Shown piece by piece: positions 40,696 through 46,818 of a stretch of DNA of 64,000 nucleotides (within the stretch, counting starts at the first letter, position 1; every line of letters starts with the position of its first letter). The notes under the pieces were generated by a model that saw nothing but the letters and a program-made list of their open reading frames with translations, did no database searches and was not told where the DNA came from. Origin of the DNA: a virus (lineage: Duplodnaviria; Caudoviricetes). Position numbers and translations under genes: made by a program. The stretch is taken from IMG/VR virus record IMGVR_UViG_3300022899_000001, positions 1 to 64,000 of that record; one strand, written 5' to 3'.

Positions 40696-40953
40696 CTAAC
40701 CCGTCGCATAATCACTGTTAGCAGGCTCTCCGTTTTTGGCGTCGTAGTATTTGTCCCACGCTTTCGAGGTCTGGTCGCACAGGTCATCGTATGCCAGTTG
40801 AGCATCTTGAGCTTGCTGTCGTGCTTCGTTTCGTAGTGATTGGAGTTTTTTGCAGTTCGCAAGTAGCCTGCTAACAAGCTCACTGGAGCGAACCGGCTTG
40901 GGCTGCTTCAGTGAGGTTATCAGGGCGTAGTTGGACGGTTTGATTCGGCTCAT
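40696..40953 (-). CDS. Cassette A1 gene, coiled-coil hypothetical protein
   Basis: N-terminus PVRSSELVS is encoded by the attC left arm; C-terminus PANSDYATG crosses site A0. Confidence 0.7.
   Translation of the reverse strand: MSRIKPSNYALITSLKQPKPVRSSELVSRLLANCKKLQSLRNEARQQAQDAQLAYDDLCDQTSKAWDKYYDAKNGEPANSDYATG
40701..40723 (+). other. attI-like site A0 (crossover G|TT at 40717)
   Basis: GTCGCATAATCACT-GTTAGCAGGC; R' matches R'' of the first cassette 10/10; no L''/L' hairpin; similar to site B0. Confidence 0.55.
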
Positions 40954-41001
40954 AGGTCTTGTTGCATTTCGCCAGCGGGTCGCTCAGTTCGGTCGTTAGG
41001 C
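40869..41001 (+). other. attC A1
   Basis: R'' TGCTAAC; L'' ACTG(G)AGCGA(A)C pairs with L' GTCGCTCAGT; R' GTTAGGC. Confidence 0.85.
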
Positions 41002-41006
41002 GTCAT
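40950..41006 (-). CDS. 18-aa coupling mini-ORF across the attC A1 right arm
   Basis: MTPNDRTERPAGEMQQDL; ATG overlaps the methylase stop, TGA overlaps the next ATG. Confidence 0.6.
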   Translation of the reverse strand: MTPNDRTERPAGEMQQDL

Positions 41007-41611
41007 AGGAACGCGCCTTGCAAGTTCGGACGCTTTCGTTCCGCAAGGCATATTGTGTCGTTGTGGGCCGCGCCGTGGCAGACGAGCATCACTTCGAGGA
41101 TGTCGCAGCCGTGCTTCTGCCCCATTCCGGCGCTGTTCCATCCGAAGCTCAGGACGATGGCATCGTCGGTCAGCACTTCGGCCATTGCGTTTTTTACGCG
41201 AGAGTAGAGCGCGGCGTTTTGCGTTTCCTTCATGCCGCACTTGATTCCGGCTTCCTGGTAGCACTCGCTGATTTGGCGCGGCGAGTATGGCGGGTCGAGG
41301 ATTGCGAGGTCGCACCGGATTCCTTTGCCCGCGAGCATCCGCAGAAAGTCCTCGGCATCCATGTGATATTCCGCCTCTGTCTTTGGGTTCAGGTCGTTGG
41401 TGTAGGTTGCCCATCGTTTGTTGCGTGCGAACGGGTCGCACGAGATTTTCGCGGCTTTGAGATAGCGTTGCACCATGTCACCTATTGGCCGGACGCTGAA
41501 GGTGTCAGCAGACGGCATTGCCCACACGCGGGAGAATGACGCCGAACCATACGGTGCAGCGAATGCCGCCATCGCATCTCCGGCGAGTTCGTGAGTCTCA
41601 GTGGGCGGCAT
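41003..41611 (-). CDS. Cassette A2 gene, phage adenine-specific DNA methyltransferase
   Basis: WAMPS.DTF, CDPFA, DPPYSPRQISECY, FGWNS.GMG, HG.AHNDTI pattern. Confidence 0.8.
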   Translation of the reverse strand: MPPTETHELAGDAMAAFAAPYGSASFSRVWAMPSADTFSVRPIGDMVQRYLKAAKISCDPFARNKRWATYTNDLNPKTEAEYHMDAEDFLRMLAGKGIRCDLAILDPPYSPRQISECYQEAGIKCGMKETQNAALYSRVKNAMAEVLTDDAIVLSFGWNSAGMGQKHGCDILEVMLVCHGAAHNDTICLAERKRPNLQGAFL

Positions 41612-41634
41612 CGCTGACCTTATCGTCGTTGGGC
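41541..41634 (+). other. attC A2
   Basis: R'' GCCGAAC; L'' GGT(G)CAGCGA(A)TGCCGCC / L' GGCGGCATCGCTGACC; R' GTTGGGC. Confidence 0.9.
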
Positions 41635-41861
41635 CGACGCCAGTGGGTAGCGATCTTATCTACCTTTGCCCACTTTGGCCGATACATTGGCCGGCCATCG
41701 TAGAATCTCAGAACGGTTTGGACACTGCCCCACCACACTTCACCGCTCACGAGTTTAGTGCCAATTTGTATTCGGTCGCCCGGCCCAACCACCGGATGCT
41801 GCGAACGTGCGGTTCGCTTTCGGCATCCGGCTTTGGGAGAAATTGGACGTTTATTTTTCAT
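41598..41861 (-). CDS. Cassette A3 gene, hypothetical protein
   Basis: ARSQHPVVG from the left arm; PNDDKVSDAAH from the neighbouring right arm. Confidence 0.65.
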   Translation of the reverse strand: MKNKRPISPKAGCRKRTARSQHPVVGPGDRIQIGTKLVSGEVWWGSVQTVLRFYDGRPMYRPKWAKVDKIATHWRRPNDDKVSDAAH

Positions 41862-41890
41862 CGGCAGGTCGCTGATCCGGGACGTTCCCC
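41783..41890 (+). other. attC A3
   Basis: R'' GCCCAAC; L'' CCGGAT(G)CTGCGA(A)C / L' GTCGCTGATCCGG; R' GTTCCCC. Confidence 0.85.
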
Positions 41891-42615
41891 ACCTTGAGCA
41901 CGCGCAGGATTTGCCGTGCGAGATATTCCGCGAAGGCCGGTGGTATGGCTTGCGCGATTTCTTTTCGAGTCGCCCACGGCATCTGCATGATTTCGCGGGC
42001 TTCTTCGAGTCCCTTTGGCTTGCGTCCGAGTCCGCCAGTTTTCTTTTTACGAGGCGCGTGTTGGAAGCTGCCAGTTCCGCTCACGTCTATCGGGTCAGGT
42101 TGTGCGGCGTGGTTGCATTCCGGCGCAGTCAGCAGGACGTTGCTCTCGAAGATGCGATGCCGGCGCACCCGAAGCCCGAAGGACGAGCCACAGAGCATCA
42201 CCGGATTTTGCAGCGGCGCACCGACCACGTTTTCGATGATGTAGAGTCCTCCCCACGCCTTGAGCTTTTCGCGTGTGCGTTCGATGTAGCACTCGTATTC
42301 TTTGCCGGTCACATGCTTTAGAGTTGTGTGCGCCTGGCACGGCGGCGAGGCCCACACGAAATCGAAGCCGGACAGGTCAGCATCCAGCGCATTTCCGATG
42401 TGACGCTTGAAGGGATAGTTCAGGCCGCTCTTGATGTCCCATCCTTCCACCTCGAATCCGGCGTTGTGGATTCCCATGCCCGCACCGCCGGCGCAGCAGA
42501 ATAAGTCAGCACATCGCGGGGCAGGTGGGGAACAAGACGCTGCACGCAAAGATGCCCCGCTTCGCAGTTCGAGCGGTTGCATCTTCGGCGGCGCGTCTGT
42601 CAGTTCGATAGTCAT
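41851..42615 (-). CDS. Cassette A4 gene, C5-cytosine DNA methyltransferase (short phage type)
   Basis: DLFCCAGGAG, WASPPCQ, YIIENV, MLCGSSFGL...RHRIFE, QAIPPAF. Confidence 0.88.
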   Translation of the reverse strand: MTIELTDAPPKMQPLELRSGASLRAASCSPPAPRCADLFCCAGGAGMGIHNAGFEVEGWDIKSGLNYPFKRHIGNALDADLSGFDFVWASPPCQAHTTLKHVTGKEYECYIERTREKLKAWGGLYIIENVVGAPLQNPVMLCGSSFGLRVRRHRIFESNVLLTAPECNHAAQPDPIDVSGTGSFQHAPRKKKTGGLGRKPKGLEEAREIMQMPWATRKEIAQAIPPAFAEYLARQILRVLKVGNVPDQRPADEK

Positions 42616-42661
42616 TTGGCGTTATTGAGGCGGGGCATCTTGCGTGAGCTTTTCGTTGGGC
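42527..42661 (+). other. attC A4
   Basis: R'' GGGGAAC; L'' GCT(G)CACGCAA(A)GATGCCCCGC / L' GCGGGGCATCTTGCGTGAGC; R' GTTGGGC. Confidence 0.9.
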
Positions 42662-45645: not shown

Positions 45646-45690
45646 ATTTTCGGGCTGTCGGCGGGCAGTCGCTCATCGCCGACGTTCTGC
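45560..45690 (+). other. attC B2
   Basis: R'' GTAGAAC; L'' GGCATGGAGCAGAACTGCCC / L' GGGCAGTCGCTCATCGCC (imperfect); R' GTTCTGC. Confidence 0.8.
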
Positions 45691-46004
45691 CGCCTGCGTT
45701 TCAGTCCTTCGAGCCGCTTCTGGAGAGCCGTTAGGTCGCGCTCCGATTCAGCGATTGCCTTGGCGAAGGCTTCGTCCCGCGTCTCGAAAAGATGATGTCC
45801 TTCCGCGCCGGAGAATCCGACTTCTGGACACCACCACATTGTTGGGTTGCTTGGAGCGCATGAGTAGCCAGTGACTTCGCGCACGTCACCATCTGCCACG
45901 GCCCACCATTGGCGTTTCTCGCGTTCGACTGCGGCAGAACCACCGGGTCGAGCTAACCCGGCGGGCCGATCTGGTTGTTGGATGTTGGTTTGCATGGATT
46001 TCAC
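45642..46004 (-). CDS. Cassette B3 gene, hypothetical protein
   Basis: PAGLARPGGSA from the left arm; QNVGDERLP from the neighbouring right arm. Confidence 0.7.
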   Translation of the reverse strand: MKSMQTNIQQPDRPAGLARPGGSAAVEREKRQWWAVADGDVREVTGYSCAPSNPTMWWCPEVGFSGAEGHHLFETRDEAFAKAIAESERDLTALQKRLEGLKRRRQNVGDERLPADSPKI

Positions 46005-46046
46005 GTTTGGGTTTTCGCGCCGGGTAGCTCACCCGGAGCGTTCTGC
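45934..46046 (+). other. attC B3
   Basis: R'' GCAGAAC; L'' CCGGGT(C)GAGCTA(A)CCCGGCG / L' CGCCGGGTAGCTCACCCGG (canonical bottom-strand G and T extrahelical bases); R' GTTCTGC. Confidence 0.9.
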
Positions 46047-46309
46047 CAATGTTCCTCGCATCGAACCTTGGCCTCTTTGACCGTGGCGTAATCACCGATA
46101 GTCCAGGATCGTCTATAGGCCGTTCCAGAGGAGACGTGCGCTTGGACTTTGGCTCTGTATTGCGTCACGAAATAGCGAAACCCAGCCGACGCAGCCCACG
46201 TCCACATATTTACTCCATTCGCCTGACTGTAATGCCAAATGGCAGAACCAACCGGATGGAGCAGACCCGGTTGGGCGTATTGAGTTTTTTCTTGAGGTTC
46301 AGGTTTCAT
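46001..46309 (-). CDS. Cassette B4 gene, hypothetical protein
   Basis: PGLLHPVGSA from the left arm; QNAPGELP tail. Confidence 0.7.
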   Translation of the reverse strand: MKPEPQEKTQYAQPGLLHPVGSAIWHYSQANGVNMWTWAASAGFRYFVTQYRAKVQAHVSSGTAYRRSWTIGDYATVKEAKVRCEEHWQNAPGELPGAKTQT

Positions 46310-46349
46310 AAAGTCTCAGTTCCGGGGCTGCTCATCCGGGACGTTAGCC
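46242..46349 (+). other. attC B4
   Basis: R'' GCAGAAC; L'' CCGGATG(G)AGCAGACCCGG / L' CCGGGGCTGCTCATCCGG; R' GTTAGCC. Confidence 0.88.
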
Positions 46350-46545
46350 AGCATTGAACGATGCGCACACCACACATTGTTTCGCGCCTTCCGTCGCCTC
46401 ACCAAGATACTCCGCTTTTACCTGTTCGACCGATGAGCACCACGCCGAGTATTTATCTCGCCACCCTTGGTGTGGTCCTTCGTTATTCGCTGGCCGCATT
46501 CTGCACATCTCATAGTTAGTTGTTTTTCATCGGTGCTGCTTTAAC

Positions 46546-46695
46546 TCAGTCGTTCTGCGTCTTCGCCTCGTCCAGTTGCGGAGCGCGGCATTGTGGGCCG
46601 CACGACAGGTCTTCGATGACCTGTTCCGTGGCTTCCTCTGGCAGTTCGTCCAGAAAGATTCTCACGCCTTTGTAGCGCACGAGGCGCACGCTCAT
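46546..46695 (-). CDS. 49-aa gene bounded by degenerate attC right arms (not in ORF track)
   Basis: MSVRLVRYKGVRIFLDELPEEA...KTQND; ATG lies in the L'-like GCTCATCGCTCAGC; ends across GTTCTGC at 46552. Confidence 0.55.
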   Translation of the reverse strand: MSVRLVRYKGVRIFLDELPEEATEQVIEDLSCGPQCRAPQLDEAKTQND

Positions 46696-46818
46696 CGCTC
46701 AGCTTGGTCGTAAGATTCAAAACCAATGCTCCGCCCGCTACAGTCACTCTGGTGAGGAATGATGGTCTTGCGACCAACGGAGCACTGGAAACTTGATCGT
46801 GACTGTAGCATGGAGGAG

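Follow-up and report, generated by a model that had tools for sequence, protein, structure and literature searches.

In canonical integrons a promoter beside the integrase gene, intI, reads outward through promoterless cassette genes, and strand selection by the integrase is thought to guarantee the orientation in which those genes are inserted. Cassettes in the reverse orientation occur in chromosomal integrons, where they are mainly toxin-antitoxin cassettes with their own promoters. Integron parts have also been found in phages: a survey of 10,705 phage genomes reported three complete integrons and one In0 in temperate phages, together with 17 clusters of attC sites lacking an integrase gene (CALINs). 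DNA methyltransferases were among the cargo, and the integrase IntI1 recombined attC sites taken from virulent phages (Qi et al. 2023, PMC9892861). Here we analyse two cassette arrays in the first 64 kb (hereafter the window, positions 1 to 64,000) of a 77,730-bp virus record, IMGVR_UViG_3300022899_000001, and we scanned the whole 77.7-kb genome where stated. All ten cassette genes lie on the strand opposite to their attC sites and start inside them. We read the locus, with high confidence, as a degenerate phage-borne integron that holds true IntI-type cassettes built backwards, with array B abutting an intI destroyed by an HNH endonuclease gene.

The CALINs and integrons of that survey share several features with this locus, namely clusters of attC sites without IntI in virulent phages, methyltransferase cargo and GTT-type array borders. 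The surveyed CALINs, however, are small and are described as having the typical orientation, whereas here there are ten sites and all the cargo is reversed and overlaps attC; the complete integrons belong to temperate phages or phage-plasmids and are host-derived or of class 1, whereas here a wreck of intI is in place and a set of viral contigs has an IntI group of its own (PMC9892861). Sedentary chromosomal integrons, such as the Vibrio cholerae superintegron and one on a Verrucomicrobiae contig (G006), resemble it in their long arrays of similar attC sites, their long loops, the match of R'' to the cassette's own 5' end, and the placing of intI and attI at one end. In contrast, their cargo is mostly in sense, ends before R'' and has its promoter at the intI end, whereas here the cargo is antisense, starts in attC and is read toward intI. 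The reverse-oriented chromosomal cassettes likewise have a gene opposite to attC polarity; those are scattered exceptions, whereas here a whole coupled array is reversed, with no visible promoters. In the inverted integron-integrase group (Treponema and others; Cury 2016, PMC4889954) intI and the cassette genes also share one strand, but that intI is on the attC strand and points into the array, whereas here intI is opposite to attC, as in canonical integrons, and downstream of the genes (PMC4889954).

A preliminary description of this DNA, made from its letters alone, had regarded integrons as rare or absent in phages, which is outdated since Qi et al. reported both phage integrons and CALINs. 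It had also stated that no description of the present architecture was known. This stands in part: integron parts in phages are published (PMC9892861), whereas the reversed, coding-overlapped layout was not found in searchable papers. Neither uniformly reversed cargo overlapping attC nor IntI as the last gene of such an operon is described in the literature that we searched, and the architecture looks undescribed.

The ten attC sites form array A (A1 to A6) and array B (B1 to B4), and all lie on the plus strand. They are listed with the positions of the R'' AAC and the R' GTT and with their scores against two covariance models. Model R1 was built from a 30-site alignment that drew on this phage, other viral contigs and one bacterial chromosome, with attC A6 kept out of training. 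Model R2 was built from 27 attC sites on bacterial contigs only, some of them flanking an IntI of 431.7 bits, and served as a stand-in for the attC model of IntegronFinder.

40865 to 41005, plus strand: attC A1; AAC 40873, GTT 40995; R1 63.7 bits, R2 51.3 bits.
41537 to 41638, plus strand: attC A2, the shortest site; AAC 41545, GTT 41628; R1 72.1 bits, R2 62.7 bits.
41779 to 41894, plus strand: attC A3; AAC 41787, GTT 41884; R1 75.4 bits, R2 58.2 bits.
42523 to 42665, plus strand: attC A4; AAC 42531, GTT 42655; R1 50.5 bits, R2 51.2 bits.
43239 to 43369, plus strand: attC A5; AAC 43247, GTT 43359; R1 85.2 bits, R2 71.4 bits.
43500 to 43707, plus strand: attC A6, the longest site; AAC 43508, GTT 43697; R1 52 bits, R2 42.7 bits.
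45261 to 45398, plus strand: attC B1; AAC 45269, GTT 45388; R1 55.4 bits, R2 40.2 bits.
45556 to 45694, plus strand: attC B2; AAC 45564, GTT 45684; R1 63.2 bits, R2 47.0 bits.
45930 to 46050, plus strand: attC B3, with bulged bases C and A; AAC 45938, GTT 46040; R1 71.2 bits, R2 56.9 bits.
46238 to 46353, plus strand: attC B4; AAC 46246, GTT 46343; R1 70.4 bits, R2 55.7 bits.

R1 gave exactly ten matches in the window, all on the plus strand and between 50 and 85 bits, with no more than 12 bits on the minus strand even with filters off. On the 77.7-kb genome R2 returned exactly the same ten plus-strand sites (40 to 71 bits) and nothing else of note. Hence the hairpins of the preliminary description are present at the positions it gave, and the attC covariance models that it had proposed as a check recover all of them. 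The spans from AAC to GTT, 86 to 192 nt, agree with its sizes of 94 to 200 bp once the R boxes are counted. Sites beside intact IntI genes score 38 to 69 bits with R1, and the ten phage sites 50 to 85 bits. The covariance models replaced a hand-made scanner for the arms, which was too strict in its first form and, when relaxed, missed A3 and returned a few palindromic false matches.

The RNAalifold consensus of the 30 sites shows a helix of AAC with GTT, then a short spacer that is unpaired, and an L stem whose 5' arm has two bulges of one base each. The bulged bases, 6 bp apart, are G and A, or C and A in B3. The AAC and the GTT do not vary among the 30 aligned sites, which include the window's ten, and the variable loops run from about 20 to 130 nt. 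Paired cells make up 90.4% of the alignment against 69.1% in shuffles (0 of 500 reached the observed value) and 23 to 37% when the partners were slid. Covariation scores 0.511 (shuffles, 0.156), and compensatory changes occur in 13 of 15 L-stem pairs. Collectively these data support the ten hairpins as real integron attC sites. With six and four plus-strand sites and no functional intI, the locus answers to the definition of a CALIN (two or more attC sites within 4 kb on the same strand, no intI nearby). Recombination of the ten sites by an IntI, as folded bottom strands, is a prediction from the sequence.

A peptide conserved behind the repeats was considered as another source of the similarity among sites and was rejected, as the repeats are read in different frames and their arms show base-pair covariation. 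Two arm-like stretches, near 46538 and 46690, were also rejected as attC sites, having no R1 match even with filters off. Just beyond A6 there is one further fragment of a site:

43707 to 43730, plus strand: relic right-arm (L') half-site; matches the A5 right arm at 93% identity as direct repeat D10, no model match.

Each array starts at a junction that resembles attI, at which the crossover would fall between G and TT (written G/TT):

40700 to 40727, plus strand: attI-like junction A0; motif TAATCACT followed by G/TT at 40717; the 5' boundary of cassette A1.
45095 to 45117, plus strand: attI-like junction B0; AATAACT followed by G/TT at 45107; the start codon of the intI wreck lies 24 nt away.

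The motif (T)AAT(C/A)ACT followed by G/TT is common to A0, B0 and the flank of intI in G004, a related viral contig, and its role as attI is putative. The 11 nt from 40717 are a perfect complement of the R'' extension of A1, and 10 nt at B0 are a perfect complement of that of B1, with the same geometry as in G004. Such pairing is found throughout both arrays. The perfect complementary runs between the R'' extension and the cassette's own 5' end, triplet included, are 11, 3, 9, 11, 10 and 8 in array A and 10, 11, 10 and 9 in array B, the run of 3 in A2 being 11 of 12 when one mismatch is allowed. Beyond the triplet, the R'' extension matches its own cassette 5' end at 72 of 80 bases and its own R' at 33 of 80; random pairing gives 36 ± 5 matches, and 0 of 20,000 pairings reach 72. 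In the full pairing matrix this complementarity appears in all ten cassettes and not between the two ends of one site. A repeat finder reported the same arrangement as inverted repeats between the stretch after GTT of one site and the stretch before AAC of the next (I3, I4, I5, I8, I9 and I12), and the shifted complementarity recurs in nearly every adjacent pair of other arrays. The units between sites are thus supported as real integron cassettes. The preliminary description had given nearly these numbers, and they hold; what it missed is that the pattern reads alike on both strands, so that it shows cassettes and cannot set their polarity.

A 118-residue open reading frame (ORF) at window 40327 to 40683, minus strand, starts 34 nt from A0, where an intI would be expected. 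It shows no similarity to IntI and no Pfam or PHROG match.

Polarity was therefore taken from other evidence. In established integrons the extrahelical bases sit on the top strand's AAC arm and, on the bottom strand, opposite the AAC arm; the first and last of them are separated by a 6-bp stem, and the last, on the bottom strand, is a conserved T (Nivina 2016, PMC5027507). In the window the bulges are on the plus-strand AAC arm with a 6-bp stem between them, and the far bulged base is T on the other strand, so the plus strand is the top strand. The same orientation follows from the position of intI and attI in relatives and from the cassette genes, which are whole only in the plus orientation. 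In the viral contigs G004, L081, L082, L083 and L085 and in the bacterial contig G006, intI lies at the end that this polarity predicts and on the strand opposite to the sites. The intact IntI of G004 starts about 20 nt from a junction of TAATCACT followed by G/TT, and the R'' extension of the first G004 cassette is a perfect complement of the sequence after this intI-proximal junction. G:T wobbles are about twice as many on the plus strand, which we judged uninformative.

Against this polarity all of the cargo is antisense. The ten cassette genes are:

40696 to 40953, minus strand: cargo A1, 85 residues, function not assigned; only in-frame start in the A1 loop; no Pfam or PHROG match.
41003 to 41611, minus strand: cargo A2, DNA methyltransferase-like, 202 residues; phrog_11619, E 5.8e-34; codon test +36.7 antisense against -23.3 sense.
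41598 to 41861, minus strand: cargo A3, 87 residues, basic N-terminus; tail 30 nt past the G/TT boundary, in frame with AAC.
41851 to 42615, minus strand: cargo A4, DNA methyltransferase-like, 254 residues; phrog_363, E 6.4e-24; codon test +37.1 against -16.5.
42622 to 43326, minus strand: cargo A5, 234 residues; phrog_12600 (a family of unknown function), E 1.2e-60.
43362 to 43652, minus strand: cargo A6, 96 residues; TAG stop directly 5' of the boundary AAC.
45080 to 45373, minus strand: cargo B1, 97 residues from the ATG at 45373; the open frame extends back to 45427.
45391 to 45645, minus strand: cargo B2, 84 residues, basic N-terminus; start overlaps the B3 stop by 4 nt.
45642 to 46004, minus strand: cargo B3, 120 residues; codon test +10.7 against -9.1.
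46001 to 46309, minus strand: cargo B4, 102 residues; only in-frame start in the loop; codon test +9.2 against -6.1.

Four lines of evidence agree that these genes lie opposite to the attC strand and start in their own attC, as the preliminary description had claimed, and we regard this as supported. All PHROG matches in the region fall on minus-strand ORFs (two DNA methyltransferases, phrog_12600 and an HNH endonuclease). The AT skew of the region, -0.17 to -0.20, is that of the other minus-coded blocks of the genome. A test of codon usage, with long ORFs from outside the region as its training set, was used since ORF length alone failed for small GC-rich cassettes; it leaned to antisense in 8 of 8 cassettes tested, in five by more than 5 bits. 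Finally, the first in-frame start lies within the attC loop, and for A1 and B4 it is the sole start there. The promoterless top-strand ORF followed by its attC that defines an ordinary cassette is absent, the ORFs being on the bottom strand and starting inside attC. Nothing usable was found in Pfam for the remaining small cargo proteins or for the bacterial cassette ORFs.

The minus-strand ORFs are tightly packed, with two 4-nt overlaps of stop and start. The N-terminal 20 to 50 residues come from the loop and from the L'' and R'' arms, read in frames that differ between cassettes, which points to conservation of the base-paired structure and not of a peptide; one fixed N-terminal frame for the arms was tried and rejected, as R'' occurs in phases 0, 1 and 2 in 3, 6 and 1 genes. 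At the other end, seven of the ten genes have no stop within their cassette and end 21 to 42 nt outside it, inside the adjacent site or attI and close to the following start codon. The AAC at the boundary is in frame in seven of eight cassettes, and in nine of ten once A6 and B2 are counted, in which a TAG stop directly precedes it. In other viral arrays it is in frame in 30 of 43 cassettes, and in 30 of the 33 of those that read past the boundary. This suggests that the crossover is kept in frame so that translational coupling would survive reshuffling. A sigma-70 scan found no promoter to the right of array B, and the label of an "early" operon in the preliminary description is unsupported.

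The loop-encoded leaders of A3, A6, B1 and B2 (from 41861, 43652, 45373 and 45645 downward) are strongly basic, with runs of K and R. Purine richness of the loops' bottom strand may be all that lies behind this.

The gene next to array B preserves both ends of an integrase:

44373 to 45083, minus strand: intI wreck; a 56-residue ORF (44913 to 45083) with the IntI N-terminus and a box II-like piece, and an HNH ORF (44373 to 44912) that ends in the IntI C-terminal tail.

By tblastn, residues 6 to 43 of the G004 IntI match 45080 to 44973 with 44% identity, beginning 24 nt from B0, and residues 283 to 330 match 44489 to 44379, where the HNH ORF ends. Over its last 15 residues the wreck is identical to the G004 IntI, and the 45 nt that encode them differ at five positions, all synonymous. 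The middle of intI is missing and the stretch with the catalytic Tyr is also deleted. The HNH ORF itself matches HNH_3 (E 1.7e-08). With these remnants lying beside B0, array B is the array of a once-complete integron. The preliminary description had the phage using IntI and attC to shuffle an operon; this is not supported for the present genome, in which IntI is reduced to the HNH-split wreck, and intact IntIs occur in its relatives, namely G004 (356 bits), L081, L082 and L083. Two further viral contigs have partial genes beside attC arrays: an 86-residue N-terminal piece of intI in L085 (6998 to 7258) and a 46-residue C-terminal piece in L084 (3 to 140). From these two, loss of intI after an array has been built seems to recur.

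Sites of the same type form arrays in the viral genomes G001, G002, G003 (100% complete) and G005 (204 kb, with terminal repeats) and in several shorter viral contigs. On the IntI-bearing viral contigs the codon test places 20 of 23 cargo genes in antisense and none in sense, with 3 ambiguous. The viral IntIs are 53 to 77% identical to each other and 43 to 49% identical to the two bacterial IntIs sampled. G004 (which is also L025) is part of a phage genome and encodes a DnaB-like helicase and a major head protein. Downstream of intI it is syntenic with L082 (L025 5670 to 11561 against L082 6995 to 12759); the neighbouring proteins are 27 to 33% identical and the IntIs 71%, which suggests either exchange of the integrase or a much stronger constraint on it. 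No cargo ORF is common to G004, L081, L082, L083 and L085, as turnover of cassettes at a fixed platform predicts. The comparison of cassette content in related phages that the preliminary description had called for thus shows entirely different cargo beside intact IntIs. Two similarities link the present phage with G004: cargo A5 is 39% identical to the first cassette gene of G004, beside intI, with the homology starting just outside attC, and attC A2, together with the leader that it encodes, is similar to an attC of G004 that bears a different gene.

On the bacterial side, the 4.6-Mb Verrucomicrobiae contig G006 has a true IntI (431.7 bits against a cut-off of 265) in canonical geometry. An exact 18-mer from the right arm matches 34 genome contigs, about the number expected by chance; nine are from Verrucomicrobiota, and five of these have arrays. 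This supports the verrucomicrobial host that the preliminary description had guessed. In a small sample, the bacterial arrays of the same attC type contain long sense ORFs ending just before R'' and some small antisense-looking cassettes. Among the latter, three small cassettes (L074 11559 to 12020, L075 2247 to 2603 and L059 7044 to 7657) have an antisense frame over the whole body and the boundary AAC in frame. Such phage-type cassettes in arrays on bacterial contigs hint at exchange between phage and host arrays.

Given these data, the following model may be drawn for the degenerate integron. Each of the two arrays, of six and four cassettes, would start at its attI-like G/TT junction, and each cassette would become circular and integrate through a cut in the folded bottom strand, made at the AAC that is paired with G/TT. 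The ORF on the bottom strand of attC would start in its own variable loop and cross the L'' and R'' arms; usually without a stop of its own, it would read AAC as Asn across the crossover and end in the neighbouring site beside the next start. Reading across boundaries in this way would make the whole array one leftward, translationally coupled operon ending at intI. The array was presumably built by a phage-type IntI, and recombination at present would depend on an IntI supplied in trans, either by a co-infecting phage or by a chromosomal integron of the host, probably one of the Verrucomicrobiota. The cargo, with its two DNA methyltransferases, may provide exchangeable anti-restriction or accessory functions.

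A wider proposal, on which we are evenly divided, is that a phage-specific integron branch builds its cassettes backwards in general. The loop would serve as the translation start and AAC would stay in frame; any order of cassettes would then be translated by coupling in an operon that ends in intI. Cassettes might pass between phages and integrons of Verrucomicrobiota, and lytic phages would gain interchangeable genes for anti-restriction and accessory roles. If true, the recombination machinery of integrons is compatible with a quite different logic of expression, attC sites are at once coding sequence and ribosome entry regions, and lytic phages own a gene-shuffling platform for functions such as DNA methyltransferases. 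It would also point to a route of gene flow between phages and the chromosomal integrons of their hosts. Recombination assays could draw on the phage IntI and attC sequences as candidates.

Several observations weigh against our interpretation. The unpaired spacer is about 3 nt per arm, whereas 5 to 6 nt is usual, and the near bulged base is C on the bottom strand, where G is usual. Unconstrained folding of the bottom strands as single-stranded DNA, a check proposed in the preliminary description, gave the expected hairpin in only 7 of 10 sites (A2 and A6 among them) and failed to give it in the other three; the folding z-scores are modest, from +0.1 to -4.9, the latter for B3. Alternative in-frame starts exist at or beyond R'' in A2, A4 and A5, and with seven of the ten genes ending outside their cassette, the cassettes are not self-contained coding units. 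No intI of TIGR02249 nor any other tyrosine recombinase was found in the 77.7-kb genome, and no close relative of the phage was found by way of two flanking proteins among viral contigs and one among metagenome contigs. The strand rule, moreover, was established for IntI1 and VchIntIA, which belong to IntI lineages other than that of the phage. This last point leaves room for a mis-assigned orientation, in which the top strand would be the recombined one and the cargo normal sense, with a bulge rule that differs in this lineage. The rule does come from proteobacterial integrases, and G, the first bulged base on the plus strand, has the usual identity for a bottom strand. We consider it very improbable nonetheless. 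The opposite polarity would put the cassette borders at R'' and sever every gene from its start, it would place intI and attI at the far end of every array in G004, L081 to L085 and G006, and it disagrees with the bacterial arrays of the same attC type, whose long sense ORFs end just before R'' in the canonical manner.

A reading that retains genuine attC sites is that they have been fossil since intI was lost, no longer recombining and kept as coding sequence and as the coupling hairpins of a fixed operon. We take this to be a real possibility, short of an even chance. It accords with a wreck that lacks the catalytic-Tyr stretch, with a genome devoid of tyrosine recombinases, with genes that cross cassette boundaries and start in loops, and with the truncated intI genes beside arrays in L085 and L084. 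Yet all ten sites score like those beside intact IntIs, IntI can work in trans on attC sites of foreign origin (Qi et al. 2023, PMC9892861), and chromosomes of Verrucomicrobiota encode IntI alongside the same attC type. That the region is a piece of a host integron picked up passively or mis-assembled, with no meaning specific to phages, is very unlikely. The attC type is indeed common to Verrucomicrobiota chromosomes, and phages with captured fragments of host integrons have been described (Qi et al. 2023, PMC9892861), but several complete viral genomes have the reversed layout too (two of these carry terminal repeats), the viral IntIs are closer to each other than to the two bacterial ones sampled, the cargo has the same orientation as the flanking phage operon and is translationally coupled to it, and bacterial arrays of this type have mostly sense cargo. 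Scarcely credible, finally, is the reading of the hairpins as RNA elements for processing or translational control that have nothing to do with integrons. They do occur in the mRNA-sense strand and enclose start codons; it leaves unexplained the complementary flanks of the segments between sites, the invariant AAC and GTT, the IntI genes in relatives and the matches to a model of bacterial attC sites.

The neighbourhood of the arrays includes four further small genes, none with a family match:

43655 to 44367, minus strand: two non-cassette genes between the arrays, 106 and 131 residues; no attC.
46344 to 46716, minus strand: two small ORFs, 54 and 49 residues, transcriptionally upstream of array B, with two arm-like stretches.

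The replicon as a whole is supported as a complete phage genome. CheckV gives the 77,730-bp record a completeness of 100%, and the phage encodes tail and virion proteins and a DnaC-like helicase loader. G001, a 78,085-bp phage with terminal repeats, is a distant relative with structural proteins 28 to 37% identical.

Some minor observations concern the bacterial and viral contigs used for comparison. In the chromosomal integron of Verrucomicrobiae a unit of about 2.5 kb is repeated between attC sites (L074 5070 to 7547 and 8288 to 10765, mirrored in L075). Each copy has an ORF resembling a tyrosine recombinase other than IntI (a partial TIGR02249 match of 78 bits, one of five such matches in the contig), and the unit may be a mobile element that targets attC sites. 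The two ends of the contig resemble inverted copies of one integron. The window itself contains two giant ORFs, one at 11037 to 17987 on the minus strand and one at 50220 to 58745 on the plus strand (2316 and 2841 residues). In G001 a 3315-residue frame has a borderline Phage_integrase match at 19648 to 20157, which scores 26.9 bits alone against a cut-off of 27.1 bits and rises to 27.7 bits when its in-frame neighbours are counted.

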